Positions 356 to 19,913 of a DNA stretch of 26,319 bases are shown piece by piece. Origin of the DNA: Candidatus Jordarchaeales archaeon. Its GTDB lineage: Archaea > Asgardarchaeota > Jordiarchaeia > Jordiarchaeales > Freyrarchaeaceae. The stretch's first letter is position 1; each line of letters opens with the position of its first letter. Under the pieces are notes generated by a model that made no database searches, was not told the DNA's origin, and was given only the letters and a program-made list of their open reading frames with translations. Where the stretch lies: NCBI GenBank assembly GCA_038889235.1, contig JAWAHN010000002.1, forward strand, positions 475,386 to 501,704, in the 5' to 3' direction. The position numbers and the translations under genes are program-made.

Positions 356-560
356 TTGAGAGCCTTAGTCGCCTACTACTCTGAAACCGGGAACACCGAG
401 AAAGTTGCGAAAGCAATTGCTGGGGCCCTAGGGGCCGAGCTGAGGCGCGTCGAAGAAGTAAGGGACGTGTCAGGCTACGACGTCATCATAGTCGGAACCC
501 CCGTACACTACTTCGGCCCAGCGGAGCCCGTGAAACTGTTCCTTGAAAGGCTCCCACCCC
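356..560 (+). pseudogene. Flavodoxin, 5' half (interrupted by the element)
   Basis: TTG start after a GGGTGG RBS; FMN-binding loop YYSETGNTEKVA and IIVGTPV. The frame leaves flavodoxin at the repeat 552-560 and stops at 571 inside the element. Confidence 0.92.
552..560 (+). repeat. attL core TCCCACCCC
   Basis: Identical 9-mer at 19666-19674; flanking bases differ on both sides; it sits at the flavodoxin breakpoint next to the integrase 3' end. Confidence 0.9.
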
Positions 561-565
561 GCCCG

Positions 566-2019
566 TTATAGACAAACCCCCGGACACTCTTCCAGGCATT
601 GTTTATTTTCTTTTCCTGAAAATATTTTGTTTCCATTATAGTCGCAGATGTATTCGAAGCCAGCCTCTACAAGTTGACATATTTCTTCCTCTGAGTGGGC
701 TACCTTTGCTATATATTCTTCTTCCTTAAATTCGATGAGCTGTGTGTATATCAGCGTGTTTTTGATGTTCTTGTGTCCAAGCATGCACATTACGTGTAGG
801 ATGTCCCTTGTTTTATGGTATTCCATTGTTGCCCTCCAATGGCGGAACGTGTGGAAGGTTATTTGCAACAGCCTTGGATTTTCAAGCTTCTTGGCCAGCT
901 TGCGCCTTTGTCTTGCAAAGCTCTTCTGCATGGCGTCAACGCTTACACCAAAAACTTTAGCCGAAGTCTTTGGCAGGGCTTTGAGCATAGCGATGAGCTT
1001 ATCCGATATCTTCAACACTCGCGGGCAGCTGCCTTTTTCAGGGGAAACCCTTACCACCTTTGCTTCAAAGTCTAAATCAGTCCATCGTAAGCGACACGCC
1101 TCCTCACACCTCATCCCCGTCTCTTTGAGAAGTTGTAGAAAAGCCATCAGCCTTTTTGTGGAAGCACACCCCGCTATAAGTTGGTCGATCTCGGCTTCTG
1201 TGGGTATAAATGGAAGCTTCTGAACCCTGCTATATCTTGGCGAGTCCCATCTACCGCCTATAAAGTTTAAGAAACAGCTGTAGGCCTCAACATACAACTC
1301 CTTTCTTCCGGCACTACAGCTTAGTCGAGCAATAGCCTCTTTAATGGACTCTGGATTGTAGAGGTCGGCTCCAAACTTCACAAGCTTTTTCAGAATCTTC
1401 ACATGTCCCTGGATAGTTGAATCAGCATAGCCCTGCTTCTTCATCCACCATGCGAATTCAACGAGTTTCCCTCTGATATTTGCTTGTCCTTGGTTTGTTT
1501 CTGTGGCTCCCGCAGCCCTCTTTTCAAGGCTCTGCGCATCCTCCATCTTCCTCCCTTTATGGGGGCCGAGTTTTTCGCCCCTTCTCTGAGGCGCAGTACT
1601 CGGCAATCCCTGATACGGTCGCGAAAGCTATTTACGGTTTTCGCTAATACAGTCCCATTATGTATTCCCGCATCTTCACACCATTTAAAAGAAGCCTCAT
1701 CCAAAGATTTCTTAAAGGGGAGATTGCCAGCAGCGATGCCAGCATGCGGAAGCTCCTTTACCGTTTCAAAACCTTCACGGAATTGTCCGCCGACGTCGAC
1801 CTCTACATTAGGCTTAGAGAAGCGATATCCGCAAAGCTTGCATAGCCAACGCTGAATAGCGCTGCCATCAGCCAAATAGCGAAGGCCATTCTTCCAAACG
1901 CTTTCCGAGCCGCATTCTGGACATTTAGGGGGCTGGCTGCTGGGCTGCGGGAGCCCGCTGGGCAAAGCCTCAGAAGGTTTAGCTCCGCAGTCAGCCTCTC
2001 CCTTAACCGTAGCGTTCAC
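566..2019 (-). pseudogene. Tyrosine recombinase/integrase with N-terminal Zn ribbon, split by frameshifts
   Basis: ORF 1441-2019 carries CPECG...WLCKLCGYRFS. ORF 566-1606 carries the catalytic set TGMRCEE, PEKG, FHTFRH, LGH, IYTQ. Indels at about 1555-1600 separate the two. An alternative-frame FRKRK-stop ending (TAA 605-603) suggests another indel near 620. Confidence 0.9.
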
Positions 2020-2174
2020 CTCTGGCTGGCGATCTGCCAGCTAAAGCCTCAGACCAAAAGCAAGCTCAGCAGATAATTGCCGTTTCCACCTTTCGCCGTC
2101 AAACATGTCTCGTTTTGAATACTATTGCTAAGCCAGCCTCGCATAGGTTTCTAAGATTGTAAGTTGCAAGTAGG

Positions 2175-3143
2175 CTAAAGGTTTGGAATCCATTCCTCGC
2201 CCATGCGCTTTATCGCTTTAAGGTTTTCAAGGTAGTTTAGGCACCTGTAAATCGTGGCTGGGCTGTAGAGGCTTGAGAGGGCGTTTAGTATTTGGTTTGA
2301 TGTTGCTGGTAGGGTTAGCATTATGCGGAAGCTCGGCTCGTCTCCGCTGTATGGGCTCAGCCACAAAACGCTTAGGGCTCTAAGCAGTTTAACGTCTTCC
2401 TCATTTACTTTCGTCCTGTTTTCGCGTAGGGCTGAAGCCTTAGCCATCGCTATGACATGTCGGTGCGATCTGAAACGCGTTTCATCGCGGTTTACAGCCG
2501 CTATAACCCTTCCAAGACGCATCAGGGCTTCTTTATGCCTTTCAGGAACGTTTACGCTTAGGGGCTTTTCTGGAAGGTTCAGCTTTACAGGTTTGAACGT
2601 GGGTTTAGCCCTGTATAAGGCTTGTTCTCCCCGGATTATGTCTTCGGGCGCGATGTGATAGCTTATTGGAACGGCTCGGCTTAGGAAGCCTAAGCGTATC
2701 CATTGTTTTCGGCGGAGTTTCCATTCGTCCGTTGTTAAAGCTGCTATGACCCCGGCTTTAACGGGCTTTGGGCTGTGGAATCGTATATAGAAGGTGTCTA
2801 TGTTTTGGACTCCTTCCTCCATCAAAGCGTTAAGCGTTAACAGTATCTGGTGCCACACAGGGTTTCCTCTTGCTGTAAGCCGTACCAGATCAGCAACCAT
2901 GACGTGGCGTATAAGCCCAGCTTGGATTTGTCCAAGCAATCCCGTAATCCCATAGCTTGTGAAGTCGTTGTAAAGCGTTACGCCCCTGTTTTCCGCGTAA
3001 GCCTTAAGAAGCTCCGTTTTCCCGCTGCCGACAGGCGCAATAATAAGCATGCTTAAGGGGTCATATGGCTCGATGTAGCCGCTGTAAAGGGCAAGTTCAA
3101 CGCTTATGGCTGTGGAAAGAAGTCCGGGCGGAAGCTCTCTCAG
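2175..3143 (-). CDS. Minimal MCM-like AAA+ ATPase with C-terminal wHTH
   Basis: Walker A IIAPVGSGKT; NALMEEG...I resembles MCM HEAMEQQTI; LSRA arginine-finger-like; FRSHRHVIAMAKASALRENRTKVNEEDV resembles the MCM sensor-2 helix. First ATG is at 3050 but the frame is open to about 3155, so the start is uncertain. Confidence 0.7.
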   Translation of the reverse strand: MRELPPGLLSTAISVELALYSGYIEPYDPLSMLIIAPVGSGKTELLKAYAENRGVTLYNDFTSYGITGLLGQIQAGLIRHVMVADLVRLTARGNPVWHQILLTLNALMEEGVQNIDTFYIRFHSPKPVKAGVIAALTTDEWKLRRKQWIRLGFLSRAVPISYHIAPEDIIRGEQALYRAKPTFKPVKLNLPEKPLSVNVPERHKEALMRLGRVIAAVNRDETRFRSHRHVIAMAKASALRENRTKVNEEDVKLLRALSVLWLSPYSGDEPSFRIMLTLPATSNQILNALSSLYSPATIYRCLNYLENLKAIKRMGEEWIPNL

Positions 3144-3268
3144 GTAGCTGATGTCTTCTCAGAAGCGTATATATCACTAGAGATACATACGCGTTTGAGA
3201 TAAGAAAGCTTTTCTGAGAGAAACCTTTCAAGAAGGCTGAGCCTCGTTATGTAAGTCTCAACATACAT
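3140..3268 (-). CDS. 42-aa hypothetical protein
   Basis: ATG 3268 to TGA 3140 (MYVETYITRLSLLERFLSEKLSYLKRV...), filling the operon gap between neighbouring genes. Confidence 0.35.
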   Translation of the reverse strand: MYVETYITRLSLLERFLSEKLSYLKRVCISSDIYASEKTSAT

Positions 3269-3274
3269 TCTCCG

Positions 3275-3888
3275 TCACCCTTCGTAGAACCATTTCGCCG
3301 GCTTGGTTGGAAGTTTGAAGGCCTTACCTGCCTTTACCAGCAACTCAAAGGCTTTCTCAACCACCTCGCCTGGAAAGTCGACTCCGTTGGCTTTGGCATC
3401 CTCGACGGTGTAGGCTCTTCCGCGCTCCAAAACACTGGACATTTGCTCCATGCAAGCTTGAATCGAATCGGCTCTTTCCGCTTCTATTCTTTTAGCTTCT
3501 GTAACTGCGCCGAGCAGCTATTTGGGAATCCAGGTTTCGCGCTGCCTTCTTCCGATTTTAACTCGTTCCCAAAGAAATCTTTTCATTAACATATTATTGA
3601 ATAGCTCGTCTACGGTTCTGCCTTTCAAACCTAACTGCTTAAGTCTTACAACATAGTCGCCCAGTTGGGTGCCCTTTCCAGCTGTCTTAGGATCTTTAGT
3701 ATATGCGCTGTCGGCAGTTATCCACACGTTGAAGTCTTTGTATTCCCCTCTGTCTGGCCTAAGTATTATGTGCCAGCGTGAATAGCGGGGTTTGAAGCGC
3801 GTCCTCTCCTAGCCCTCCTACAAAGGTCGCAGCTACAATCTTTAGTGACACTAACAACAGTAGCCGTTATATCTCTCAGACCCTCCAC
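3275..3888 (-). pseudogene. ~200-aa protein with a CxCxxC motif, beta-rich (OB-like) N-terminus and wHTH-like C-terminus; one frameshift and one in-frame TAG
   Basis: GTG 3888 gives MEGLRDITATVVSVTKDCSCDLCRRA; a missing G near 3808 leads into RFKPRYSRWHIILRP...WIPK, then TAG 3520-3518, then in frame LLGAVTEAKR...EKAFELLVKAGKAFKLPTKPAKWFYEG to TGA 3275. Confidence 0.6.
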
Positions 3889-4028
3889 CCCCTAATCTCC
3901 GTGATGGCGACTTCATTTTGGGGGCTTGACTCTGTGACTTCTGTTTTGTGGGTTGTGAGGTGTGCAGCTAAGTCGTCAATTGTGGAAAACTGACAGTTGC
4001 ATAGTGGACACTTCAGCTCACTGCTCAT
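3876..4028 (-). CDS. 50-aa C2H2 zinc-finger protein
   Basis: MSSELKCPLCNCQFSTIDDLAAHLTTH... matches C-x2-C-x12-H-x3-H exactly. It overlaps both neighbours and is below the ORF-track size cutoff. Confidence 0.8.
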   Translation of the reverse strand: MSSELKCPLCNCQFSTIDDLAAHLTTHKTEVTESSPQNEVAITEIRGWRV

Positions 4029-4214
4029 TCTCCGCAACCTCCCGGGCTAAAACGGTTTTTACCTCGGAGCTCACAACGTTCAGGCGTTCAAGCTTTTCAA
4101 TGATCGCTTGACGTGCGAATTCGCTGACCGACACCCCATCGCTAGGGACACGGTCTTTACGATATCCGCGATTCTCTCTGACACTTTTACGCTTATCCAA
4201 CGGTTTCTGTACAC
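4018..4214 (-). CDS. Ribbon-helix-helix (CopG-like) regulator, one apparent frameshift
   Basis: GGAGGT RBS then GTG 4214: MYRNRWISVKVSERIADIVKTVSLAMG. One extra G in the run at 4134-4137 would join it to VSVSEFARQAIIEKLERL. Confidence 0.78.
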
Positions 4215-4253
4215 CCCCCTTACCTCCGCAAATAATGCTCATAGCTTGAAGCT

Positions 4254-4261
4254 TTTATAAA
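4254..4261. promoter_or_regulatory. Palindromic TATA box TTTATAAA between divergent regulators
   Basis: Self-complementary. It lies about 25 nt from the + strand start (4285) and about 25 nt from the RBS of the - strand operon (4228-4223). Confidence 0.55.
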
Positions 4262-4284
4262 CTGGAATTACACACTTTTCAAGT

Positions 4285-4608
4285 GTGAACTCCATGAGGC
4301 GAGATAAGCTGAAACTGCAACCTATTGACCTAAAGGTCTTTGAGCTCATCCTTCAAGGGAAGAACATATATGGTATGTTTAAGTGCGGGCTTCCAAAAGG
4401 AACCATAAACAAGAGTGTTAAGAGGTTAAGAAAGCTTGGAATTTTTGAGGATAAAGAGTTAAGGCCTACAGAGGATGCCCTCAAAAAGCTCTTTGAAGCC
4501 GAGTTTGATAGACCAAGTTTAGATGTTGCTCGCGTCCTTGTAGATAATGGAGTTAACGCCAAATTGGCGAACTTTATTCAGTCTAGACTTCAAAAGTGTG
4601 CGATTTAG
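4285..4608 (+). CDS. Winged-helix DNA-binding protein
   Basis: LQPIDLKVFELILQGKNIYGMFKCGLPKGTINKSVKRLRKLGIFE fits the wHTH pattern; divergent from the RHH operon. Confidence 0.6.
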   Translation: MNSMRRDKLKLQPIDLKVFELILQGKNIYGMFKCGLPKGTINKSVKRLRKLGIFEDKELRPTEDALKKLFEAEFDRPSLDVARVLVDNGVNAKLANFIQSRLQKCAI

Positions 4609-4967
4609 GTTTAATAACGGATGAGAATTTTCTTCTTTTGCTCATCTTATATTGGGCTTTAATAGGTTACTTTAAGTATAAACTGCCAGTCAAAGAGTTA
4701 CATAGAATTTTGAGGCTCATCGAACCTAAGCTGAACAAAGATCTAATGAATGCCGTCGAGGGCCTGGTAAACCGTTCAAGATTTAATTTGAAGCACCCGT
4801 TCATGTTCGCGCGCATGTATATAGAACACCCGAAGCCTCTCCTAAGCTCTCGTGAAGAGGAAGAGCTCCACGAGGAAGAGGGGGCCATAGCTAGGCTTAT
4901 AGATGTCGCAAATAAATTTGGCGAGAACATCAAATTAGGAAGGATCGATGAGCCTTACCCCTTTTAA
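4596..4967 (+). CDS. Hypothetical protein with an N-terminal hydrophobic helix
   Basis: 123-aa ORF overlapping the upstream gene; FLLLLILYWALIGYF segment and an acidic EEEELHEEE patch. Confidence 0.5.
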   Translation: MCDLGLITDENFLLLLILYWALIGYFKYKLPVKELHRILRLIEPKLNKDLMNAVEGLVNRSRFNLKHPFMFARMYIEHPKPLLSSREEEELHEEEGAIARLIDVANKFGENIKLGRIDEPYPF

Positions 4968-5006
4968 TTAGTCTAACTCAGCTCCCAACGAAGTTAAAAA
5001 GTCACA

Positions 5007-5138
5007 TTAGATTGCGCTTTCCGCCATTTTTTCATTGATTGATGCTGATAAGGATTTTTTATACGGTTTGAGTCTTCCCGTCATATCTACAGCGCTTAAC
5101 CTCTTTTCAAATTCCTCTTTCATATCTTTTATCGTCAT
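5007..5138 (-). CDS. 43-aa hypothetical peptide downstream of the proteasome-beta-like gene
   Basis: GAGGT RBS; ATG 5138 gives MTIKDMKEEFEKRLSAVDMTGRLKPYKKSLSASINEKMAESAI, TAA 5009-5007. Confidence 0.35.
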   Translation of the reverse strand: MTIKDMKEEFEKRLSAVDMTGRLKPYKKSLSASINEKMAESAI

Positions 5139-5149
5139 AACGTATAACC

Positions 5150-5866
5150 TCACATTTTCAGAAGCTCCTTCAGTTTTTCCATAACATGCTGTAGCGAATC
5201 TTTTGCCTCTTTCTCAGGCAATTCAACCGCTGATGAGGAAACATCCTCTATGTCTTTCGGACTCACGGATACAAGGTTGATTTTTCCTCCAACAAAAGGA
5301 TCAATCGTTCCAACAAGTCGTATAACATAACATACAGGTTTTATTACACGCTCAATCCTTCTTTCAGATGGAAGAAGATACCTCAAGAAAAGCTCGGCAT
5401 AGGCCGCGCCCGAGCCCATCGCGCTGAAATCATCAACAGGTTCCGCGAGGGCTGTGCCATAAAGAGTAAAGGTGTCAACCTTTTCATTGCTTTCGTAACC
5501 CCCTATTATCATATCGTAAGTGTACTCAGCAATCTTCCTTTCTTCCACATACTCGCTGTGAAGCGTGCTGGCCAGTGGTTCAGCAACCTTACTTAGAGCC
5601 TCAGAAAGGGAGAGCTCATTTCTGTTTAGATCCTTATTTGCAATTTCAACCATGTTTGTATTTGTAAACATGCGAATAAACTTGTCTATGAAGGCTATTG
5701 TTCTAGCGCCAACCAGTGCGATCTTCTTCCTCACCAAACCCTCCTTCTCTATAACATGAATCTTATTTGTATCCCTTGAAATAGGCACGCCTCTACCGTA
5801 AACGGTTCTACTATCTGACGCAATTAAAATTCCATCATCACATTTTACTGCAATGCATAAAGTCAT
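5150..5866 (-). CDS. Proteasome-beta-like Ntn hydrolase without propeptide (copy A, intact)
   Basis: MTLCIAVKCDDGILIASDSRT gives Thr1 and Asp17 after Met removal; DTNKI supplies the Lys33 equivalent; AMGSGAAYAE and IDPFVGG motifs are present. Confidence 0.85.
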   Translation of the reverse strand: MTLCIAVKCDDGILIASDSRTVYGRGVPISRDTNKIHVIEKEGLVRKKIALVGARTIAFIDKFIRMFTNTNMVEIANKDLNRNELSLSEALSKVAEPLASTLHSEYVEERKIAEYTYDMIIGGYESNEKVDTFTLYGTALAEPVDDFSAMGSGAAYAELFLRYLLPSERRIERVIKPVCYVIRLVGTIDPFVGGKINLVSVSPKDIEDVSSSAVELPEKEAKDSLQHVMEKLKELLKM

Positions 5867-5923
5867 TTGCCTTACACCATTTTGATTATTTATACGCTAA
5901 AAGAATTTAAATTTAACATCTAC

Positions 5924-6686
5924 TTATCTCCTCTCAAAGAATGGACATTGGAAGCATAAACTTGCATCCGGCTTTAGGCTGTAGACTTCAACTTCCTCAG
6001 CAGTGAACCATGAGGTTGCCTTTTCAACAGTTCTAAGCTCAAAGAGCTCTTTGGCTTCTTCGCCGTATATGCGTTCAGCCTCCTCCTTGCTAAGCTCCCA
6101 AGCATCGCAGTATTCATCCTCGGCTAGGTGCCTGCAACTCTTAAGCTTCCATGTCCCTATAAGCCTCTCAGCCAAGCCTGGACCAGCCGTGCGCGTTGTA
6201 GCGGCAGTTGAAGCCGTAAACCCTAGTCCGCGCTCTAAGGCAAGCGAAGCCACGTCCACAAGTAGGCTCCCCGCTCCTTGGCAATGCGTTCAAGCCTTTC
6301 CTTAACTTCTTTACGAACCTTCAAGTAGAGCGTCTCCGCCGCTTCCAACACGCTTGAACCCTCCTCCAGTGGGCGTTCAGAATGGCCTGCGCTATTATTT
6401 CATCAGGCATAAGCATGTATTTTCTGAGCAGTTTGGCAAGCAGCTTAGCTTGGTCCGATATGGGTATAAGCTCCTCATTCCCATCACAGTATAGCCTATG
6501 GAAAACGTCTAACTCGGCTTGGAGCTCCTTTATGAATGCTTCATCGGCGAATGCTTGAAACCTGCCAAGATAATTGTAGACCGTGCTTCTACGGATGCCG
6601 AGCTCCTCAACTATGCATTTGACCGGCATCTTCCTTGCCCTAAGCCTAACGATCTCAGCAGCCTTATCCGATGGTATGCGCCTCAA
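5924..6686 (-). pseudogene. HTH + RHH + Cys/His Zn-binding domain protein, two apparent frameshifts
   Basis: ORF 6321-6686 has an N-terminal HTH (VKCIVEELGIRRSTVYNYL). An intermediate frame reads TLYLKVRKEVKERLERIAKERG and joins LVDVASLALERGL of ORF 5924-6259. Single-base additions in a C run (~6372) and a G run (~6270) restore one ORF. Confidence 0.6.
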
Positions 6687-6864
6687 AGCTGAACGCCAAA
6701 AATATTAAGGGAACTCCCCCTTAAATCGGTTTCATAGGCTCAGAAGTGCAGAAGTAAAAGCGTTGCTCAAGCCTTATCGTGATTCAGAGTCCAAACAATT
6801 CCAAATTGGTTAGAGCTCTAACCCGGTTAGAACATGTCTTCTGCACGGAGCAATAAAAACGCTT

Positions 6865-7425
6865 ATGAAACAATGGAAGCATCTTGAAAGCAGTGGAAAC
6901 ATGACGGTAACAGAGGAAGCGGCCCTCCTGCCCTTCGAGGAGAAGGCCAGGCTCATTATTGAGTTGAGGAAGCAAGGTAGGACTTACCGAGAAATAGCTA
7001 AGGCTTTGAAAGTTTCGCCTAGGGACATAAAGAGGGCTTTAAAGCTCGAGGCTCATAAGGATGAGATCCAGACGCTTAAGTCTAGGGTTGAAAGCGTCGA
7101 GAAGAGGCTTAACGGCATAGAGGAAACCTTAATTTGGCTTGAAAGCGGCCTCAACAGGAGGTTTAGGAAGGACGAGGAGATGGTCCAGTGCGTGCACATG
7201 GATAAGGAGGGATATTGCAGAGGCTGGTTTTGGAAATCGCCCGTCAAAGGCTGGACAATGAAGAGCGAAGGCGGAAAATACTATCTAAACGTGGATAAAC
7301 ACCGCTGGATATGCACTGCATGCCCAAGCTTCACGCCCAGAAGTTTTGAGGATAAGCTGGAGGGCCTTATTAAAGCCCTCAAAGAGGTCAGGACATTGCT
7401 TGAAATGGCTGCCTTCAAAACCTAA
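6865..7425 (+). CDS. HTH + coiled coil + Cys/His Zn-binding domain protein (likely start ATG 6901)
   Basis: QGRTYREIAKALKVSPRDIKRAL HTH; heptad region; CVHMDKEGYC...W...CTACPSF. Confidence 0.7.
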   Translation: MKQWKHLESSGNMTVTEEAALLPFEEKARLIIELRKQGRTYREIAKALKVSPRDIKRALKLEAHKDEIQTLKSRVESVEKRLNGIEETLIWLESGLNRRFRKDEEMVQCVHMDKEGYCRGWFWKSPVKGWTMKSEGGKYYLNVDKHRWICTACPSFTPRSFEDKLEGLIKALKEVRTLLEMAAFKT

Positions 7426-7483
7426 GCCCTTAACTCCAAACTATTTTGGTGGCTTACGAGGGCGAACCACTCCAGCATTTCCT

Positions 7484-7506
7484 ATTAGCATATCATTAGC
7501 ATATCA
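7484..7506. repeat. Tandem 11-bp repeat ATTAGCATATC x2
   Basis: Read directly at 7484-7494 and 7495-7505, in an intergenic region between convergent genes. Confidence 0.7.
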
Positions 7507-7623
7507 ATAAGCTCCCTTCATAAAAACGCTAAATTGTCTAAGATAAACAATCCAGTATCGCCTCCGCCACGCTTGCAGTGATATGAAGCTGCTCAGAATT
7601 GGCGCAGCTAAGCCAAGCGTAGT

Positions 7624-7812
7624 TCAAAGGAGCAATAATACACCTGTTATGATGAATAATGTGCCGACGGCAATCAGCGCTATTGGAAGCCAAATAGACG
7701 CTAGCAACAGGGAGACCAAGCATGCTCCAATTAATAATAGGGCTGCTGGAACGAGGAAAATTAGTAGTAAAGTTGCTATAATCCAAAACATTACCTTAAC
7801 TAGGTTAATCAT
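7624..7812 (-). CDS. 62-aa two-helix membrane protein
   Basis: ATG 7812 gives MINLVKVMFWIIATLLLIFLVPAALLLIG...; almost wholly hydrophobic; purine-rich RBS region upstream. Confidence 0.55.
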   Translation of the reverse strand: MINLVKVMFWIIATLLLIFLVPAALLLIGACLVSLLLASIWLPIALIAVGTLFIITGVLLLL

Positions 7813-7890
7813 TTCTTTCCCCCTCTTTCTCAACCTCCATTTTAGCCATCCCTATGCTTTAATTTTCATCTCTTAGGAAACGCTTGGCAA

Positions 7891-8703: not shown

Positions 8704-8706
8704 GAA

Positions 8707-8826
8707 TTATACCTCCTTGGAACATGAGCATAATCCTCTCAGGTTAAAACCGAAGTGATTAAGCTTGGTCTGCTGACTGTCACAGATGAGAAAGGTGCCA
8801 GCACGCCTAAGGCCGATAACAGTCAT
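8707..8826 (-). CDS. 39-aa ORF, possibly another degenerate proteasome-beta N-terminus
   Basis: MTVIGLRRAGTFLICDSQQTKLNHF...; MT-x-I-G-L-R...DSQ-x-T resembles strands S1-S2 of beta subunits. Confidence 0.25.
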   Translation of the reverse strand: MTVIGLRRAGTFLICDSQQTKLNHFGFNLRGLCSCSKEV

Positions 8827-8862
8827 GTAAACGATCCCCCTACCACTATCCTAAAAAGTGCG

Positions 8863-12148: not shown

Positions 12149-12726
12149 AACACTTTCACCTCAACTCTTGGAATAACGTCCCTTAATTCGAGGAGCAGAT
12201 CATCGAAATAAGGTGGAAAGTTAAGATATCCATAACTTACGTACTGTATGAGATAGCAACCTTTTAGTTCATCTAGGGCCCTCTCAAACTCATAATCAGT
12301 AAGGGTTTTCTGAAACAATAGTTTGTAAAATTTCCGTAAGCTACTGGTATCAACGGTCTCCGGGCGCATAATAGATATGAGGTAGAGGATTTCTCTCGCG
12401 TTTAGGCTAAGGGCGGTTGCCCTTGCTTTTGCGGACTCCACCACTGAATCCAGGCATATTTGCTTGAAGGAGTCTTGGATGATGTCTCTTAGACACTCGC
12501 CGGTATCCTCAGATCTTCCATAGGGATCCACCTTATCAACACCAAGCGCCTTCAGGTCATCCAGAACCGAGCTCAAGGCCCCAGACCTCCCGTATCTCGC
12601 CCTCAATATCTTCGCAGCCGCATCTGAACCAACAGTGTATAGTAGGTACAGCGCATCGGCCCTTTCCAGGCTGTTCTCCTCCACATACTTTTTCATAAGA
12701 CCCTCAATATCGACAGCTTTAACCAT
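12127..12726 (-). CDS. 199-aa protein with a C-terminal wHTH-like domain (first gene of module 1)
   Basis: LSLNAREILYLI...SSLRKFYKLLF...FERALDELKGCYLIQY; AGGTG RBS and a TTTAAA box upstream. Confidence 0.72.
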   Translation of the reverse strand: MVKAVDIEGLMKKYVEENSLERADALYLLYTVGSDAAAKILRARYGRSGALSSVLDDLKALGVDKVDPYGRSEDTGECLRDIIQDSFKQICLDSVVESAKARATALSLNAREILYLISIMRPETVDTSSLRKFYKLLFQKTLTDYEFERALDELKGCYLIQYVSYGYLNFPPYFDDLLLELRDVIPRVEVKVLWPEKEM

Positions 12727-12795
12727 ACATAGGACACCTGCAACAAATTATAGATGAGAAAGTTTAAATTAATTACGCTGCTGATTTAAGGGCAC

Positions 12796-12982
12796 CCGCC
12801 GAGCCATATACGAGGAAACCATTAAACAACACGCTTTCAGACGAGCCCGTCACACCAAATTAGATTGCAAAAAGCTAGAAATAAACTACAAACCGCTAAG
12901 AACGCGCTGATGCGCTTAACAATCACGATGAAGGACATACGCTGCAAGAACTCTGGGAGGATTCTGGAAGGAAAGGCCATGA
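12796..12982 (+). pseudogene. Degenerate small wHTH regulator, paralog of 14133-14343
   Basis: Reads with indels as PSxYEETIxNTLSDEPVTPN*IAKxLEINYxTAKNALMRL...KNSGR...FWKER versus PSRYEETIYNMLSDEPVTPNEIAKRLGISFKTVKDVLMHL...KNSGRIHIFWREK. Start codon lost (CCG); TAG at 12861-12863. Confidence 0.8.
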
Positions 12983-13014
12983 CCATAGGAACGCGCGCAC
13001 TCCCATAGAGAAGG

Positions 13015-13191
13015 TTAGCGAACTAATAGGGCTATTCCGATGATTGTGGCGATGACGCCTAAGACTATGAGGGCTACTGGAATAGCTATAGGCGCCAGCG
13101 CACAGGCTGGCTTTTTACATGAGGGGCATATTCCGCCTTCTATATCTGCCTCGGTGAGCCCATGCCCACAATACGGGCACTCAGCAACAGT
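13015..13191 (-). pseudogene. Double zinc-ribbon + C-terminal TM helix fragment
   Basis: TVAECPYCGHGLTEADIEGGICPSCKKP...IAIPVALIVLGVIATIIGIALLVR to TAA 13017-13015; no clean start codon. Confidence 0.55.
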
Positions 13192-13367
13192 CTAATATGC
13201 CTGCGGTAGAATCTATAATGCCATGGATCTAAGGGGTCTATTCGCATCATATGTAAAATGCCACTTACAGAGAGATAAAATTGTCTGTAGCGTTCAAGCC
13301 TAATAATTATTAGAGGAACCATAATAAGCGAACTACTAACATTAAGAAGGATTTAGGTCTAGGCTCA

Positions 13368-13456
13368 ATTATCATAAAAGCCAGACCCTCGATGAAGTTC
13401 TTACCAAGCTCGGCGTTAATAGGGTTGATCTCATTAAGATAAATGTTGAAGGATCC
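13368..13456 (+). pseudogene. FkbM-family methyltransferase fragment
   Basis: TLDEVLTKLGVNRVDLIKINVEG matches the FkbM TLD...IDLIKIDVEG motif; no flanking coding context. Confidence 0.6.
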
Positions 13457-13473
13457 GCTTTAAGATCCTCAAC

Positions 13474-14149
13474 TTACTGTGGACTTAACCTCCTGATAAC
13501 CTCCTTCAGCTCGATCACTTCTATTGGACAATCCTTCCAGTCATGTTCCCAGCAGACTATGATATCGCATTTATTGGGATCATGGCCATGCAATTGAAAA
13601 TTGCTACTTTTATACTCAAATTCTATATAGACTCTTTCATATCCTTTGTCAATACGTCTTCTCGCTACCATATCTGGAAAGGTTGGAGGGCTGGATTCAT
13701 AAATGATGCCTAAATCATCCATAACTTTGGAGAAAAGGAGGATAGTTCCGGCCTCGTTTAGTGGGGGATAAACAAAACCTCGAAAGTTTATTGGTTCCCC
13801 CACTATATCCTTAGGAGTTTTCTCTGGAACACTCGGCTTTATCGCCTCAGGAGATTTCAAGACCTCTAGAAGTTTGCTGATCTTTTGAATCCCTTCCTTC
13901 CATCCTATTTCCTCAAATTTCTTAAGCCATTCACTTGCCTTATCATGAATAAGCTTCATTAATTTATCTAAAGAATTGCGACGTTCAGACTCCTCATATA
14001 TATGCGATCATTTCATCCTTACTATAATACCTTGGTATAGAAATGCCAATGGAGTTACCTAATTGAGTCAGTTCTTCCCTTGTCATAGAAAAGGCATATT
14101 TTTCGTAGTTAAACAAAGATAGGAAACTTTCCTTACTTATTTTGGGCAT
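13474..14149 (-). CDS. HeH/SAP-like N-terminus + PD-(D/E)XK nuclease (restriction-like), apparent 2-nt deletion in an AT repeat
   Basis: ATG 14149 gives MPKISK...MTREELTQLGNSIGISIPRYYSKDEMIAYI. Adding AT to the (AT)n run near 13997-14002 joins it to ORF 13474-13959 with FPDMVARR...VYIEFEYKSSNFQLHGHDPNKCDIIVCWEHDW. Confidence 0.7.
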
Positions 14150-14343
14150 CTAACTTTTCCCTCCAGAATATATGTATCCTTCCCGAGTTCTTGTAGCGAA
14201 CGCCCCTCTTAATAACGGCTAGATGCATCAACACATCCTTCACGGTCTTAAAGGATATTCCAAGCCTTTTGGCTATTTCATTTGGCGTGACGGGTTCAAT
14301 CTGAAAGCATGTTGTAGATGGTTTCCTCGTATCTGCTTGGCAA
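14133..14343 (-). CDS. Small wHTH regulator divergent from module 2 (one apparent +1 indel)
   Basis: TTG 14343 gives MPSRYEETIYNMLSD. Removing one T near 14299 gives EPVTPNEIAKRLGISFKTVKDVLMHL...; the paralog at 12796 reads GAC GAG CCC here, supporting the repair. Confidence 0.75.
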
Positions 14344-14416
14344 GCGCCCTTATCTCTCTTCAAGTTAAAGGTATAGTTAATTTTTATATTATACATTACT
14401 CGAACATAAAATTAAC

Positions 14417-14428
14417 TGTTTATAAACA
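14417..14428 (+). promoter_or_regulatory. TATA box within the 12-bp palindrome TGTTTATAAACA upstream of module 2
   Basis: About 17 nt before the ATG at 14445, with a GAGGTG RBS in between, in an AT-rich divergent spacer. Confidence 0.5.
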
Positions 14429-14444
14429 CATAAGGAGAGGTGTA

Positions 14445-15449
14445 ATGTCTGCCATATCACCTGAGGAGCTTATTAGTGATGTTAAGCCTTGGGATAGAGA
14501 TTCTTGGAGAAGGTTTATAGAGACACATGTTGTGCCTATTAGAATTCTAGCTGATAACGTTGCAAAACAGTTTGTTGGCGATGCTTCAGCGGGAGTTGCA
14601 AAGGCTCTGGCTGATAGTGCCTCACGTGTTGTAGAAGTGGCTAAGAGAGTTATTGGGGAGGTTAAAGTGGAGTTTGAGGCCCCAACAGACCCCATTGAGG
14701 GTTTAAGGCTTCTCGTTGAAAAATGTGGAAACACGTTCCTCGGCGTAGGCGATGCTGGTAAATACACCTTGTTTGCATGGACTCTTAGGAAGGTCACAAG
14801 GGAGTATTTGTTTGAAGCACTATACCCTTCATTGAAAGATAAAGAGAAACGGGATAAGAAATTTGAAATTCTAGGTATAAGAGAAGATCTACCATTGTTT
14901 GTACCTGCAGTTAAGTCTATATTAACTGAGAACCTAACAGTCCTAGGATACCCTGATTATCCATCAATTTGCCGCGTCGAAGAATGGGAGATATATGTGA
15001 CTTTAAGTATATTGCCCGCAAGGGAAGCAATCCTTGGAGGCTCTATCTGTAGGTTTGTTGATAGGATCGTAGCGGTGCTTGGTAGACCCGGCATACTTTC
15101 AGGCGTGGAGCTATCAGCAGACGTCGTTAAACTATACCTAGATAAGTGCCCTGCGAGGCCCACGGAGCTGTACGAATACTCTTGGATTAGGCATAACTGG
15201 AGAAGAAGCTATGCTGAATTAGATAAACTTTGTAGAGTTAGATGCGATCGTCCATGGAATATTCAGGGCTTCGCTATAAGGTGCGTTAATAATTTAAGAT
15301 CGCCAGATGAATGGAGTGGATTAAATCAAGAGACAAACCTGCTAAGCTTCTTTAGGTTAGTGATGCCAAGCCTAGTAACTGGTCGCACGGAGTTATTGTT
15401 TAGCAGCGACTGGAGGGTTGCCTTAACATTGGAAAGGGTGCTCTCTTAA
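14445..15449 (+). CDS. 334-aa hypothetical protein (first gene of module 2)
   Basis: GAGGTG RBS and ATG 14445; its TAA overlaps the next ATG (TAATG); no family recognised. Confidence 0.75.
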   Translation: MSAISPEELISDVKPWDRDSWRRFIETHVVPIRILADNVAKQFVGDASAGVAKALADSASRVVEVAKRVIGEVKVEFEAPTDPIEGLRLLVEKCGNTFLGVGDAGKYTLFAWTLRKVTREYLFEALYPSLKDKEKRDKKFEILGIREDLPLFVPAVKSILTENLTVLGYPDYPSICRVEEWEIYVTLSILPAREAILGGSICRFVDRIVAVLGRPGILSGVELSADVVKLYLDKCPARPTELYEYSWIRHNWRRSYAELDKLCRVRCDRPWNIQGFAIRCVNNLRSPDEWSGLNQETNLLSFFRLVMPSLVTGRTELLFSSDWRVALTLERVLS

Positions 15450-17245
15450 TGTTAGAGGGAGAGAGGCCTCTTAAAACCATGCCACGATACGTTGAGGATT
15501 ATATAGAGGAATTATTATATTTCCTCGCCATTGAGAAGAAGGCTGAAGTTGAAGTCATAGTAGAGGAGGAAAAAGAGGAGAGTCTCAAACTGAGAATTAT
15601 AACGATGACGCCATATGGAGGGAAGGTTGAAAGTGCCGACATGGCGCCTAGGATATCTCTTAGGAGCTTTCCTTTTATAGAACCAATAAAAGTGGAACAC
15701 CCGCTAAAACTAATCCAACCGATAATAATGTTTGAAAATGAGATTTTTACGGAAGTACGCTTTCCACCTCTTACCAGAATATCGTGTTTTTCTCAACAAC
15801 CTATCCAAGCTTTTCATCATAGAATTGGGAGAATACAGCCTGCATTATTACCCTACGTTTCACCTAATTTTTACTCCTGGCTTAAATATTCAATTAAACC
15901 TATGAGTCTCATTGAGCAGCCTTGCATAACAGCATTTACATTAAAGCATCTGCTAAGACTTATTGAGGTCCCGCTGAAATTACCAATTACATCTGAAGTT
16001 AAGGCATCAGACAAGCTTCCAGCATTGACAACCGAAAGGTTCTTGGTGCAGAGATCAATCAAAGCAACGCTTACAGAGGTCATTGAGGCATTACAAAGCA
16101 CAGCTCAGGCACAACAGCTTAAAGGCTTAGGTTTGCTTGCGCTATTATTGCCAGAAGAAAAAGAAAAAGCTTAGACGTTTCATAGGGGCCTCAGAGGAAT
16201 ATATAGGAGAACCTAAAAGTAAAATATCATTTATGGTATCCCATCTGGACTGCATGTAGGGAAGTTTATAGAGAAGCTAAAGGATCTTATCCTGAACCCA
16301 TTGTTTTGCTTGAGAAGGGAACTGAGGATTGGTTAAGGATTCATGGGGGCATCTCAGGCAAGGTTGTAGTTTTAGATGAGGAGAAAGTAGGAGAGGAAGA
16401 AATAAAGAAATGGTTTAGGAGGAGGTTGCAAGAGGCATTCTCGCAAGGGCTTGGGCTCCTCATACTCATTGCAAATGATGTTAATAAGGCTAAGGAATCC
16501 GTTGGAAACCTTTGTAAGCCTTATGCAGCAAAAATTATCGATTTACATGTCACTTCTGAACTCGGACACGTCCTAAACCGCTTAGCGAGGATGTTAAGCA
16601 TAGGCTTTGGTATTCCCCGCGAGGAAATATGTAAAACTGAGGAGCTGAAGGTTGAAGATAAGGTAATGACGATCATAGAAGGGCAACCATGTGAGCTCCC
16701 CCATATGGACATCATGGTTGCGAGAACCGACCGCGCATATCAAAGCTTTTTGGATGAACTTTTATCAAGCGATTATCTAGCACATGCCAGAAGAGATGTA
16801 GGTGAGCGTGAAAGCGAAGATCATGTGGCAATGAAGATCTTGGCAATTAAGGATTTACATGAGAGGTTCAACGTTAAGCTTGAGGACATAATTTGCACTT
16901 GTGAAGTTGGAGATAAGATAGTAGCGGACGTTTATGTGCGTGGTAAGGCATTGGCGATCGAATGTGAAATGATGCTCGGTATTGCGCCATCACCCCTTCT
17001 CAAAATATTTGAGTCTGTCAGAAAGTATATTGAACGACCTTTAAAGCCGGATATGCCTGTAAATGAAATTTGGATCATAGTCCGTAACTGGCCAGCTATA
17101 TTACAATTTGGATGATTTATTCTGGGCCGAAAACATTCTGAGAAAGGAACTAAAAGAACGTAATAGAAAAGTGAAATTTTTCATTCCAGATATTTGCAGA
17201 AAATCGCTTATGGCGATCGATGATATTGTCAGAGCATTTTATTGA
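15449..17245 (+). pseudogene. Paralog of the 606-aa CoiA-like nuclease protein, three apparent frameshifts (module 2)
   Basis: Ile/Pro-rich N-terminus (15449-16174); shifts near 16170, 16222 and 17110; ERESEDHVAMK and VADVYVRGKALAIECE. The tail DDLFWAENILRKELKE..VKFFI aligns with DDIRWVKKYFKE..VEFYI; TGA at 17243-17245. Confidence 0.75.
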
Positions 17246-17256
17246 AGTAACAATTT

Positions 17257-17388
17257 ATGACTTTATTCTTGCTCTAAAGGGGTTCTCGAAGGTAAAGAGG
17301 GCGTCATCATCTCTCCGATTCTAAGGCCACCGTATGTCCAGTGAGCTATGAGATTAGGAAGGCATATCCAATACTTTTGAAGGGTTAA
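17257..17388 (+). pseudogene. Truncated proteasome-beta-like gene (remnant, paralog of copy B)
   Basis: ATG 11 nt after the nuclease stop. With indels it reads MTLxLALKxVLEGKEGVIIxSDSKATVCPVSYEIRKAYPILL versus MTLLIALKWVIEGKEGVVISSDSKVTVGPVSYETRKVYPILL. Confidence 0.82.
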
Positions 17389-17594
17389 TGAGAAGTTAGG
17401 GCAACAATTTTAGGTTCCCTTCACTGATTCGTTCAGCGCCATAGGTACGTTGAGATGTGCACGCAGCAGAGTTAAAGCAGTCCATCGGCTGAGCACGCGC
17501 AACAACCAAGGATAGGTATGAAAAGGCGAAAAGGTTACTTAACTAAACCTGAATGTGGAATCTGAGAGGAGGTCTATGCTTTGTCTCGTTCTGC

Positions 17595-18042
17595 TTATAC
17601 AATCCCACTTGATTTCTTTAACACATCATTCCACGCTGTGACATGGACCTTACTCGCGTTCCAGCTCTTCAATTCCCTCAAAGCTCTACGTTCCTTGCGG
17701 TCCAAACGTTCGTAACCAGTATCGTTCTCCTGCCTGTTGAAGAATAACTCGCCAGCTGGTCTAACGGTTCCACTTCGACGAGAAGCCATTCCCCTTTTTC
17801 TCTCGGCTATTACATCTGGACTTCCGGAAGCTCTAATATCCTCTGGGGCTTCTTCCCTTGCAACAATCCTATAGCCCATCCTCCTCAGCTTTTCCTCTAC
17901 AGCAACCTTAGGACTTCGTGCACGTGACATAGGGCCTTCCTGCCTCCAAAGCCTTCACAATGCTCCTCGTCTCTTTAAACGCCTCTCTAGCCCTATCAAT
18001 CGACTTAAAAGTGTTCCAAACGCTCGGCACCCCCGCCATCAA
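17595..18042 (-). pseudogene. Small PD-(D/E)XK (Hjc/Mrr-like) nuclease, frameshifted
   Basis: GAGGTG RBS; MAGVPSVWNTF...HEVL/VAVEEKLRRMGYRIV...GSPDVIAER, then after a shift GEWLLVEVE; further stops downstream. Confidence 0.6.
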
Positions 18043-18106
18043 CTTTCACCTCTCCAGTGGAGTACATGTACCCCATGCTTTGTTAGCTTTGAGTCTTAAG
18101 GCGCTG

Positions 18107-18158
18107 TGCGCGCTAGCTTGTTGCTAATTTGGTGTAAAATGGTTTTTATTCCTCTTTT
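18107..18158 (+). repeat. 52-bp inverted repeat, left copy
   Basis: Reverse complement matches 18539-18590 at 46/52; the outer 21 bp (TGCGCGCTAGCTTGTTGCTAA) are perfect. Confidence 0.88.
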
Positions 18159-18175
18159 GCCATTTTGGGCTTAGT

Positions 18176-18661
18176 GTGGACTCATTTGATAGGCGTATCT
18201 TAGGCGTTCTAAAAGATGGAAAGCCAAGGAATTTCAAACAGCTCACAAGGGATGTCGGCGTCTCCCATAACACTTTAAGAATGCATTTATCCACCCTAGA
18301 AAGGCAAGGCTTAATCGTTAAGGATAAAAAGTCTATTAAAAGGCGTGGAAGACCAGTCTTCATATATACCATAACTCCAGAGATGAGCCGTAAGGTGACT
18401 TTAACAATAGCAGAGCCGCAGACCACCATCGTCAGCCTAACATTTCAAACACTGAAACATCTCTGTAGATTTGAGAAGGGCGGATACTGCAAGAAAAGTC
18501 AGAGAGAATGTAAACCCCAAAATTGCCCCCAAATCCTAAAAAGAAAAATAAAAACCATTTCTAACCAATTTAGCAACAAGCTAGCGCGCAGTCCCATGCC
18601 CAAAGTGCGGAAAGCCCATAATATCTTTAAGCAAAAATGGGAACTTGGAAAACGAGGTTAA
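18176..18661 (+). CDS. ArsR-like wHTH with a Cys-rich C-terminus
   Basis: FDRRILGVLKDGKPRNFKQLTRDVGVSHNTLRMHLSTLERQGLI...GRP; CRFEKGGYC...C...CP. The native end is probably near 18550, inside the right inverted repeat. Confidence 0.8.
   Translation: MDSFDRRILGVLKDGKPRNFKQLTRDVGVSHNTLRMHLSTLERQGLIVKDKKSIKRRGRPVFIYTITPEMSRKVTLTIAEPQTTIVSLTFQTLKHLCRFEKGGYCKKSQRECKPQNCPQILKRKIKTISNQFSNKLARSPMPKVRKAHNIFKQKWELGKRG
18539..18590 (-). repeat. 52-bp inverted repeat, right copy
   Basis: Partner of 18107-18158; overlaps the 3' end of the wHTH ORF. Confidence 0.88.
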
Positions 18662-18905
18662 GCCTTATATCGAAAAAAGCATTTGCTAACTGGTATCACA
18701 TAGGATGCTGGAAGGAGTGACTTTTATAATAAGCCCGGCGTAAGCATGGCGCATAAAAGTGAACTAGAAATTTTTGATGAACACCTGCGTAAAGACTAAC
18801 AGAATTAGAGTTTTAGAATAACTTGTGAAGAGCCCTCGAAAACCTATTTCGGCAAAAATTAAAACAGAACCCAGCAATTTTCAATATTATTGGTAGGTCA
18901 TTTTA

Positions 18906-19190
18906 ATGCCGAGTCATAGGTGTCATGAGGAGATAGGCGCTCTTATGGGTATAAATATATCTGCATTAAGGGATGCGAACCTTTTTATTGACGATCCGGA
19001 CAGATGGTTTAGTGAGCGCGGCTTACGGAACCTTTATGGGCTGAAGCATGACGATGATAGGGTGCTTGCTATGAACATTGTTCGCTCTATCTTAAGGGAT
19101 ATTTATGGTGATGAAGGCGTACTTGCTGCGGATTTGCATTACGCCGTGGACTATATTGAGCGTTGGCTAGATCCAGAACTATCCAGATAG
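18906..19190 (+). CDS. His/Asp-rich putative metal-binding domain (possibly the N-terminal part of one gene with 19191-19559)
   Basis: HRCH, KHD and LHYAVD motifs; its TAG is followed immediately by an in-frame ATG. Confidence 0.55.
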   Translation: MPSHRCHEEIGALMGINISALRDANLFIDDPDRWFSERGLRNLYGLKHDDDRVLAMNIVRSILRDIYGDEGVLAADLHYAVDYIERWLDPELSR

Positions 19191-19559
19191 ATGCTTACAA
19201 AAATGCAGCAACAGGCCCTCTATCCTCCCAAAAGGTGGGGCTTCGTCCATAAGTATAAGAGCATATGGTATCCATCAGCCAGAGACCAAAACACTATTCC
19301 ATTAACAGCCTACTGCAACATATGCAAGGGAATCAAGAAACCAGTTAACTCACCACTCTGCAATGAATGTAAAATGCATATTTTAGAGGAGAAAGATATT
19401 TCGCGAAAAATGTCCTTCAATACTTTCCTTCAAGCTTTTGGGAAAAAGATTGATGAGCGCAAAATAGACAAAAGGGTCGTAGATTTCATAAGCACGAATT
19501 TCAACCGCATAGTAACCATGATAATTGAGGATAGAATAAAGCGTGGACTCAACTTCTAA
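19191..19559 (+). CDS. Hypothetical protein with two CxxC pairs
   Basis: CNICK...LCNEC; same frame as the upstream ORF; no evident RBS. Confidence 0.55.
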   Translation: MLTKMQQQALYPPKRWGFVHKYKSIWYPSARDQNTIPLTAYCNICKGIKKPVNSPLCNECKMHILEEKDISRKMSFNTFLQAFGKKIDERKIDKRVVDFISTNFNRIVTMIIEDRIKRGLNF

Positions 19560-19630
19560 ATAAAAATAAATGCGCGCTTCTTGGAAAAAGATAGCTAGCT
19601 AAGCATCATAAAATAGAAAAAGAAAGGATT

Positions 19631-19650
19631 TGCGGGAGATATCTCCAGCA
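19631..19650. repeat. 20-bp imperfect palindrome next to attR
   Basis: TGCGGGAGAT/ATCTCCAGCA with one mismatch; the core GGAGATATCTCC (19635-19646) is perfect. Confidence 0.7.
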
Positions 19651-19674
19651 TGTCGTGGGTTCAAATCCCACCCC
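19650..19674 (+). other. attR: tRNA-like variable loop/T-arm fragment ending in the 9-bp core
   Basis: ATGTC GTGGG TTCAAAT CCCAC CCC: 5-bp stem with a canonical T-loop. The rest of the acceptor strand (GCCCG) is at 561-565. Confidence 0.85.
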
Positions 19675-19913
19675 TAACAGGTGTGAAGGGAGCCGCTTTC
19701 TGCACCTTCCACAACTCCGGGGATAAGAGAACAATAAACTACATTAAAGAAAAACTGGAGGAGAAAGGAGCCAAGTTTCTGGGAGGGTTCTCCTGTAAGG
19801 GGGAGAGCCGCTTTGTGGCAAACTTTGGCCCAAGGATATTCAACAAGGGTAGGCCGAACAGTGACGACTTGAAAAAAGCAGAAGACTTCGCGAGGACTAT
19901 AGCGAAGCTCTAA
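19675..19913 (+). pseudogene. Flavodoxin, 3' half
   Basis: (L)TGVKGAAFCT...KGAKFLGGFSCKG...KGRPNSDDLKKAEDFA is a typical flavodoxin C-terminus, in frame with 356-560. Confidence 0.92.

Follow-up and report, generated by a model that had tools for sequence, protein, structure and literature searches.

Why does a mobile element whose rejoined ends spell the 3′ half of a tRNA lie in a flavodoxin gene? The question is raised by a 26,319-nucleotide stretch of DNA (the window) from Candidatus Jordarchaeales archaeon, a member of the Asgard archaea (GenBank assembly GCA_038889235.1, contig JAWAHN010000002.1, positions 475,386 to 501,704), in which a 19,114-bp element with a tyrosine integrase gene (int, product Int) splits the flavodoxin gene in two. 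A sequence-only reading of the window had proposed integration at a secondary site. We consider the off-target integration of an element specific for tRNA-Arg(CCT) highly probable, and a recent origin of at least its integration module (int and the attachment sites, int/att) in another phylum probable. Our full reading, held at a probability of about 0.6, is a recent direct transfer from a Bathyarchaeia-type host to an Asgard (Jordarchaeia) hot-spring cell. The foreign tRNA end in the attachment site of the element (attP) would be a record of its previous host, and the insertion would also be the first crossover map (tRNA positions 60–68) for the zinc-ribbon integrase family.

Insertion of the element into a flavodoxin gene

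The 9-bp repeat TCCCACCCC is present twice in the window, as the cores of the left and right attachment sites attL and attR (Table 1). Deletion of positions 561–19674 fuses positions 356–560 with 19675–19913 into a 444-nt open reading frame (ORF) of 147 amino acids and a stop codon, which reads ...FLERLPP-LTGVKG... across the joint. The clean 147-residue flavodoxin announced by the sequence-only reading proved accurate to the base, and the gene is uninterrupted in congeners. Orthologues in three same-genus genomes are 84, 77, and 68% identical to the rebuilt protein and align without a gap at the joint. The flanking DNA is contiguous in the same-genus genomes G001 and G003, and at the orthologous site G001, G002, and G003 all lack the element. 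Pfam flavodoxin families were matched by the N-terminal half and by one intact orthologue. Flavodoxin paralogues in the host genome are only distant (28–36% identity). Both junctions are clean and the shared 9 bp are exactly duplicated, as in integration at a secondary site. The ORF of the 5′ part extends to position 571, with three foreign codons (RPL) and a stop contributed by the element; for the 3′ part, the element supplies an in-frame ATG at 19650, from which an 87-aa ORF starts. In the 2.14-Mb assembly the 9-mer occurs 25 times against about 16 copies expected by chance. What goes beyond chance is the exact rebuilding of the ORF combined with a tRNA-like junction at the ends of the element, rather than the presence of the 9-mer.

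The same insertion was found in samples of two studies, which would suit a regular site to which this element lineage had been retargeted, with the tRNA-like attP as an old relic. We regard this as very improbable. The three congener flavodoxin orthologues are empty and lack the 9-mer (LPS, LPD, or LPS where the host genome has LPP, encoded by CCA CCC), and no independent insertions of relatives at this flavodoxin codon pair were found. Moreover, the tRNA-like part of attP is undecayed and identical to a living tRNA, and a 96%-identical sibling element uses the tRNA itself.

Scaffold C2 ends with the window, a 26-kb piece set between a 99-N gap in the scaffold and the end of the contig; this position might suggest a chimeric contig or a contig of another organism. 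Such an assembly or binning artefact is extremely improbable. The right flank is 80% identical to, and syntenic with, one same-genus metagenome-assembled genome (MAG), and the left flank matches another. The junctions were searched in Logan contigs of the probable source run (X1) and of a run from a different hot-spring study (X2). Contigs of X1 and X2 each bridge both junctions with 0–4 differences, and the arrangement is therefore no assembly artefact; the misassembly feared by the sequence-only reading was not borne out. Neither an empty-site joint (skipping 561–19674) nor a circle joint (19674 to 561) was found among the contigs, a result uninformative on the existence of either, and the similar contig depths of element and flank have no bearing on it.

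Two side observations concern the surroundings of the site. In X3, a 97.5%-identical int variant lies on a contig that stops precisely at base 552 and whose depth is about 16, compared with about 3 in the host flank; a different left context in that sample would fit, the contig end itself being no evidence. In the congener G003 (contig C45; 2507–3386 in our extract L126), the DNA beyond the flavodoxin gene is 90% identical to positions 427131–428008 of host scaffold C2, which lie 47 kb away across three scaffold gaps. The region 428–475 kb of C2 may contain further insertions, a rearrangement, or a scaffolding problem.

The attachment site and its cognate tRNA

The predicted 19,114-bp circle has the junction ...ATGTC GTGGG TTCAAAT CCCAC CCCGCCC G, in agreement with the sequence-only reading, and a 24-mer across it is found exactly in at least 120 genome contigs, where it forms the T-arm and acceptor 3′ strand of tRNA genes. 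In a collection of species-representative genomes the pattern GTGGGTTCRAATCCCACCCCGCCC matched at least 120 contigs, mostly Bathyarchaeia among the matches listed. In the matched contigs, with G73, the pattern is the 3′ end of GGGCGGGTAGCCTAG...CCTCCTAAG..., which ARAGORN identified as tRNA-Arg(CCT). This cognate tRNA begins with GGGCGGG and terminates with GTGGGTTCAAATCCCACCCCGCCCG; the start had been foreseen, with Lys or Arg as the guessed identity. The tRNA-like junction is thus equal to the tRNA-Arg(CCT) 3′ end of Bathyarchaeia, and attP holds positions of about 47–73 of this tRNA. By standard tRNA numbering the 9-bp core corresponds to positions 60–68, where the sequence-only reading had put it, and the adjoining GCCCG (561–565) is the remaining acceptor 3′ strand with the discriminator G73. 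At attL, host DNA lies left of 552 and element DNA right of 560; at attR the order is reversed. By these matches, attP carries the tRNA-Arg(CCT) 3′ end as in Bathyarchaeia-type Thermoproteota. The attP 22-mer and the attL 21-mer had no exact match in viral_contigs, nor had the attL 21-mer in metagenome_contigs.

Directly behind many of these tRNA genes lies an integrase gene that reads toward the tRNA, its 3′ end nearest; the window has this geometry. The identity to the window Int at this tRNA is 80% (L022), 74–79% (L017/L149), 75% (L086), 74% (P0077/L175), and 65% (L076). In a maximum-likelihood tree the window Int falls inside a clade of tRNA-Arg(CCT)-associated Bathyarchaeia integrases (support 96/91), and all NCBI-named matches within its top 120 homologues are Bathyarchaeota or Bathyarchaeia. 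Its own 90% cluster yielded P0196, a 481-aa integrase that is encoded intact by two MAG contigs, L177 and L178; compared with L178, the window integrase ORF is 93% identical in amino acids and 96% in nucleotides. The DNA of L177/L178 is 96.0% identical to window positions 552–1634 (1.08 kb), and the alignment opens at the first base of the core. Left of the core, both contigs carry GGGCGGG...GTGGTC GTGGG TTCAAA, an intact tRNA-Arg(CCT), where the window carries flavodoxin. The sibling element is about 11 kb long, and its far end is a 23-nt tRNA-end repeat preceded by the same P-arm motif as in the window, TTTGCGGGAGATGTCTCC. The 239-nt host flank of L177/L178, a divergent tRNA-Leu/tRNA-Arg pair, is 78–80% identical to long Bathyarchaeia contigs, and for this reason we infer a Bathyarchaeia-type host. 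The related elements that the sequence-only reading had suggested seeking at such a tRNA are present, then, both as this sibling and as the 65–80% identical integrases in the same geometry.

The P-arm motif (Table 1) is a candidate arm-type binding site. On a Bathyarchaeia contig (L040, 5568–7657) a mini-element of about 2 kb is made up of tRNA-Arg(CCT), an integrase gene, and an attR that has the same P-arm palindrome; the mini-element integrase is 43% identical and lies in the orientation opposite to the window layout.

Absence of the primary site from the host

The Asgard markers ESCRT-II (PF05871) and VPS28 (PF03997) were detected above cut-offs in the host genome, and neither was present in any of the 14 control genomes; a search for the profilin family gave no match in the host and none in the controls either, and is therefore uninformative. 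In the 95%-complete host assembly no match to the cognate attachment site (attB) was found within two mismatches, and the tRNA-Arg(CCT) encoded by the host ends differently, in AGGGGTTCAAGTCCCCTCGGGGCCGCCA. The cognate 22-mer was not found within one mismatch in the 10 other genomes of the host order. Across 400 genomes of the host phylum it was nowhere matched exactly, and 10 of these genomes match at one mismatch. The sequence-only reading had expected a matching tRNA in this or related genomes and would have counted its absence against the claim. Such a tRNA does exist, in Bathyarchaeia, but not in the host genome, not in its order, and not exactly in the 400 genomes of the phylum. The lack of a cognate tRNA in the host and its order means that the primary site is absent, and secondary-site integration is therefore strengthened. 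It is supported both by the sibling at the tRNA and by the missing primary site.

ARAGORN found no tRNA in the window and only seven in the host genome, and the Rfam tRNA model found 12, although the genome is 95% complete. Because the host tRNAs are full of introns, tRNA 3′ ends were listed instead by a custom pattern search. Intron-bearing tRNAs with introns at one or more non-canonical positions were noted at 727461–727600, 729023–729221, and 950962–951099 of scaffold C1 and at 109993–110082 of C2, and scaffold C3 (470 kb) had no tRNA by the pattern search. Neither the host assembly nor any of five Bathyarchaeia genomes gave a CRISPR-spacer-like match (at least 25 nt) to the element.

The integrase gene and its state

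Int scored 81.7 bits with PF00589 (cut-off 27.1), which places it among phage integrases. The R...HxxR...Y signature is intact, and TGMRCEE, HTFRHWR, LGHKN, and IYTQ are kept in the alignment with P0077. At E ≤ 1e-40, 3941 relatives of the zinc-ribbon integrase family were found. Int is XerA-like, but the XerA equivalog model of NCBIfam (NF040815) gave 92 bits against a cut-off of 220; with this score and a gene at the end of an inserted element, a XerA-type chromosome-dimer resolvase was rejected. The int stop codon (566–568) is 5 nt from the core, a layout shared by relatives, and attP therefore lies outside the int gene. Both parts of int are at the left end of the element (566–2019), so the gene is not split in the class I (SSV-type) manner.

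The gene is disrupted in two places. A 1-nt deletion at 1553–1555 splits the zinc-ribbon N-terminal domain from the rest of Int, and relatives align in two frames; variants in X2, X3, and X6 have the extra base after 1552, which is absent from the main X1 or X2 contigs. The A-run at 619–622 is two bases longer than in the sibling, and the last four residues are replaced by a 17-residue tail. An alternative ATG at 1546 stands behind GGAGG; if started there, Int would have 326 aa and lack the zinc ribbon. With the catalytic residues intact and this start available, loss of Int function is only likely. Because of the two frame-disrupting indels in int, the element is probably stranded.

Position of strand exchange

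In known tyrosine recombinases the overlap region must be identical. If overlap identity holds here, both exchanges would fall within tRNA positions 60–68, since only the 9 bp are shared. These positions cover the 3′ strand of the T-stem, together with the T-loop base before it and the three acceptor bases after it. Related integrases lie at three other tRNAs: tRNA-Ser(TGA), seen in another Asgard MAG, tRNA-Cys(GCA), and one of Leu type. The Ser, Cys, Leu-type, and Arg targets share exactly GTGGGTTCnAnTCCCACCCC and then diverge at the same base where flavodoxin identity ends, and the placement is supported by this common end of the shared block and the core. According to a review, archaeal cleavage positions can vary, and archaeal cleavage sites have been mapped experimentally only for SSV1 Int (PMC8371274).

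With only 9 bp in common, dissimilar flanks, and about 25 copies of the 9-mer in the genome, the circle might also have entered without its integrase, by illegitimate recombination at a microhomology. Such an event is improbable, as the breakpoint lies within the approximately 27-nt tRNA-like attP, which on a circle of 19,114 bp would happen by chance with a probability of about 0.0014, and coincides with the block common to all tRNA targets of the integrase family; clean junctions and an exact duplication also speak against it.

Extent of the proposed transfer

Several observations weigh against the transfer and off-target integration that we propose. L177 and L178 are contigs of 11 kb whose MAG labels (Korarchaeota, Thermoproteota) carry little weight. 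The genome has about 18 further copies of the 9-mer, and the choice of the flavodoxin copy is unexplained; beyond the 9 bp, the flavodoxin site does not resemble attB or attP, with 3 of 14 and 3 of 13 flanking bases matching. In three tRNA-Leu genes of the host, which are unoccupied, 21–22 nt agree with attP, the whole core included. Insertion there would presumably put CCCGCCC-G in place of the acceptor 3′ strand and A73 and inactivate single-copy tRNAs; such cells would therefore be lost, and only insertions at dispensable sites would survive. A crossover in a mismatched T-loop overlap would, after replication, leave the same junctions, although it is unlikely because only one of seven bases would match. 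Finally, the identity to the sibling ends near 1634 and the two elements have unrelated cargo, so a transfer between phyla need not have involved the entire element.

The zinc-ribbon ORF shares only about 43% identity with its counterpart in the sibling, against 96% over positions 552–1634, which places a mosaic junction near 1634, and the element as a whole is a mosaic. Possibly, then, Thermoproteota contributed only an integration module made up of the att arms and the C-terminal two thirds of int, and the rest was resident in Asgard or other hosts; integration would still have been off-target. The end of identity, the divergent zinc ribbon, and the unrelated cargo would suit this history, as would the 54–60%-identical integrases at tRNA-Ser(TGA) in other Asgard MAGs. 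We consider it doubtful, given that the closest named relatives of the cargo are also Bathyarchaeia, Nitrososphaerota, and Thermoprotei, that attP retains an unaltered foreign tRNA end, and that the 606-aa cargo protein has, outside its own genome, one weak match (G040, E 4.6e-4) in 300 other Asgard genomes sampled.

The recent direct transfer that we prefer could have proceeded as follows. In its usual hosts, Int would recombine attP with the 3′ part of tRNA-Arg(CCT), and the copy carried by the element would restore the tRNA. The element, or at least its int/att module, would have entered an Asgard (Jordarchaeia-like) cell with a different tRNA-Arg(CCT) 3′ end. Int would there have recombined attP with a flavodoxin pseudo-attB sharing only TCCCACCCC, splitting the gene and duplicating the 9 bp. 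The insertion would then have become fixed in the population, and the acquisition of the two indels by int would have left the element probably stranded.

Cargo genes and neighborhood

The features of the window are listed in Table 1.

Table 1. Features of the integrated element and the interrupted gene (window coordinates)
Feature	Position	Strand	Basis or remark
Flavodoxin, 5′ part	356..560	+	Pfam Flavodoxin_5/_3/_1 on 356–568; contiguous with the 3′ part in same-genus genomes
attL core copy TCCCACCCC (tRNA positions 60–68)	552..560	+	Homology to the tRNA-Arg-integrated sibling starts here
Integrated element, 19,114 bp	561..19674		GC 44.9% vs. 48–51% in the flanks
P′ arm start GCCCG	561..565	+	Identical in L177/L178 and Bathyarchaeia attL sites
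Tyrosine integrase ORF, core-binding and catalytic domains	566..1606	-	PF00589 E 7e-23; 346 aa from TTG
4-Cys zinc-ribbon ORF	1441..2019	-	Corresponds to the N-terminal domain of full-length integrases (411–481 aa)
Frameshift site	1553..1555	-	Run of 3 bases here, 4 in the intact 481-aa sibling and other community variants
Putative P-loop NTPase, 291 aa	2175..3050	-	Weak AAA-lid matches; protein-atlas viral/plasmid P-loop clusters, some with SF3 or MCM members
Proteasome-beta/HslV-like peptidase	5150..5866	-	PF00227 E 4e-11; phrog_1040; TIGR03634 under cut-off
Cargo module, about 6 genes including a 606-aa NTPase-like protein (8863–10683)	8046..12726	-	Relatives L170–L172, L165
Cargo module, protein of about 333 aa and split gene	14223..17115	+	83–84% aa identity to L174
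ArsR/HTH_20-type regulator	18176..18661	+	44-nt inverted repeat around it, 18107–18150 / 18547–18590
P-arm motif TTGCGGGAGATATCTCCAGC with palindrome GGAGATATCTCC	19630..19649	+	Kept at attR ends of L003, L040, L077, and L177/L178 elements
Element-borne tRNA T-arm copy GTGGG TTCAAAT CCCAC + CCC	19655..19674	+	attR core 19666–19674
Flavodoxin, 3′ part	19675..19913	+	ORF rebuilding, congener alignment

The product of 2175–3050 is a candidate replication helicase, to be taken as a lead only. A 90%-identical variant contig of the peptidase gene has about twice the element depth in X1. The cargo also includes helix-turn-helix regulators. No structural match to virus hallmarks (capsid, portal, terminase) was obtained with Pfam or PHROGs among the 20 ORFs, although distant ones could be missed; the sole PHROG match was the HslV-like peptidase, and two protein scans (Int, the 606-aa protein) and two pattern scans of viral_contigs gave no relatives. 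With hallmark genes found by none of these searches, a provirus was rejected.

Proteins of the module at 8046–12726 are 64–81% identical to those of metagenome contigs L170–L172 and of a Bathyarchaeia genome (L165), with partial homologues in Archaeoglobales, and the module is a candidate for an uncharacterised defence system. This module, with proteins of about 213, 271–315, and 600 aa, recurs beside restriction-modification, GmrSD, HerA/NurA, HEPN, and toxin-antitoxin genes; it was seen in Archaeoglobales, a methanogen-like contig, and metagenome contigs (L167, L169, L172, L173). The host has a weak paralogue of the 606-aa protein at 317614–318084 of scaffold C3.

In L174 (a Nitrososphaerota MAG), the module homologous to 14223–17115 lies beside Cas3/Csa4, and its single 601-aa ORF corresponds here to two ORFs in different frames, 15449–16174 (241 aa) and 16306–17115 (269 aa), which may be a decaying or variable cargo gene. 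In the X2 population this split gene has insertions of 6 and 18 nt at 16154 and 16214. The protein encoded by 14223–15446 (+), about 333 aa in relatives and without known family, is 86–91% identical in MAGs labelled Bathyarchaeia, Nitrososphaerota, and Thermosphaera, and a variant reaches a depth of about 228 in X2; its gene looks like one that moves very freely between archaeal phyla. Both cargo modules occur elsewhere in defence-island-like neighborhoods, and their closest relatives are in Bathyarchaeia, Nitrososphaerota, Thermoprotei, and Archaeoglobales.

In X2 and X3 contigs, positions 18553–19603 (1,051 nt; ORFs 18906–19190 and 19191–19559) are replaced by 13 nt, CACAGC(A/G)GCATAA, and the left breakpoint of the replacement falls in the right arm of the 44-nt inverted repeat. 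Outside the element, 1.4 kb from the insertion, four consecutive RAMP-superfamily genes at 21030–26040 (-) form a type III CRISPR-Cas effector cluster truncated by the window end.

Comparison with known systems and significance

The element belongs with those that carry class II (pNOB8/lambda) archaeal integrases: it encodes a PF00589 integrase with R, HxxR, and Y, and int lies beside attP and not across it (PMC8371274). As in that class, attP carries a tRNA 3′ copy, and the tRNA at the attL of the sibling is intact; at the window locus no tRNA is restored because the target is not a tRNA. It differs from class II elements in its insertion outside a tRNA and in the N-terminal 4-Cys zinc ribbon of its Int family, and the window Int lies outside the named families tested. 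With SSV-type (class I, "suicidal") integrases it shares the archaeal tyrosine recombinases of tRNA-targeting mobile elements; there, however, attP is inside int, which is split on integration, whereas the window int is split by a 1-nt deletion.

ICEBs1 and SXT reportedly integrate at secondary sites in hosts from which attB was deleted. The present case is like known secondary-site insertions in the absent primary site, the partly common core, and the precise junctions. It is unlike them in that it is natural and not engineered, affects a protein-coding gene, rests on nine identical bases, and joins a donor and a recipient that would belong to different phyla. Among archaeal integrases the favoured target is the 3′ region of a tRNA gene; lambda has secondary sites, and SSV1 enters a site differing by 2 nt when its cognate site is missing, this near-cognate integration being the sole archaeal secondary-site case described in the review (PMC8371274). 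An element at a secondary site is expected to excise poorly and become trapped, the archaeal point being made there with reference to She et al. 2004 (PMC8371274).

Tyrosine-integrase elements are present in other Asgard chromosomes. The mobile genetic elements of Atabeyarchaeia have integrases whose nearest relatives are in Njordarchaeales, Bathyarchaeia, and Aenigmarchaeota (PMC11529989), and HeimV1 of Heimdallarchaeum adjoins tRNA-Gly(CCC) (PMC8813620). Unlike the element described here, those sit at their own att motifs or tRNAs, and neither an attP matching the tRNA of another phylum nor an off-target insertion is reported in the two papers (PMC11529989, PMC8813620). The mechanism, a class II element at a secondary site, is known; the case is new for archaea. 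New are the natural insertion into a protein-coding gene, the nine shared bases, the Asgard genome, and, by sequence comparison, a 96%-identical sibling at the tRNA of another phylum.

The missing cognate site makes the insertion a natural experiment that would narrow strand exchange in an abundant archaeal integrase family to tRNA positions 60–68. The 96% identity over 1.08 kb is evidence at the sequence level for an exchange of integration modules between Thermoproteota and Asgard archaea of the same hot-spring type. The locus also illustrates a likely fate of a cross-phylum jump: a broken host gene, a stranded element, a decaying integrase, and defence-like cargo that is kept permanently. 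If the recent direct transfer is true, attP sequences across MAG collections could be used to trace the transfer of elements across phyla into the lineage related to eukaryotes.

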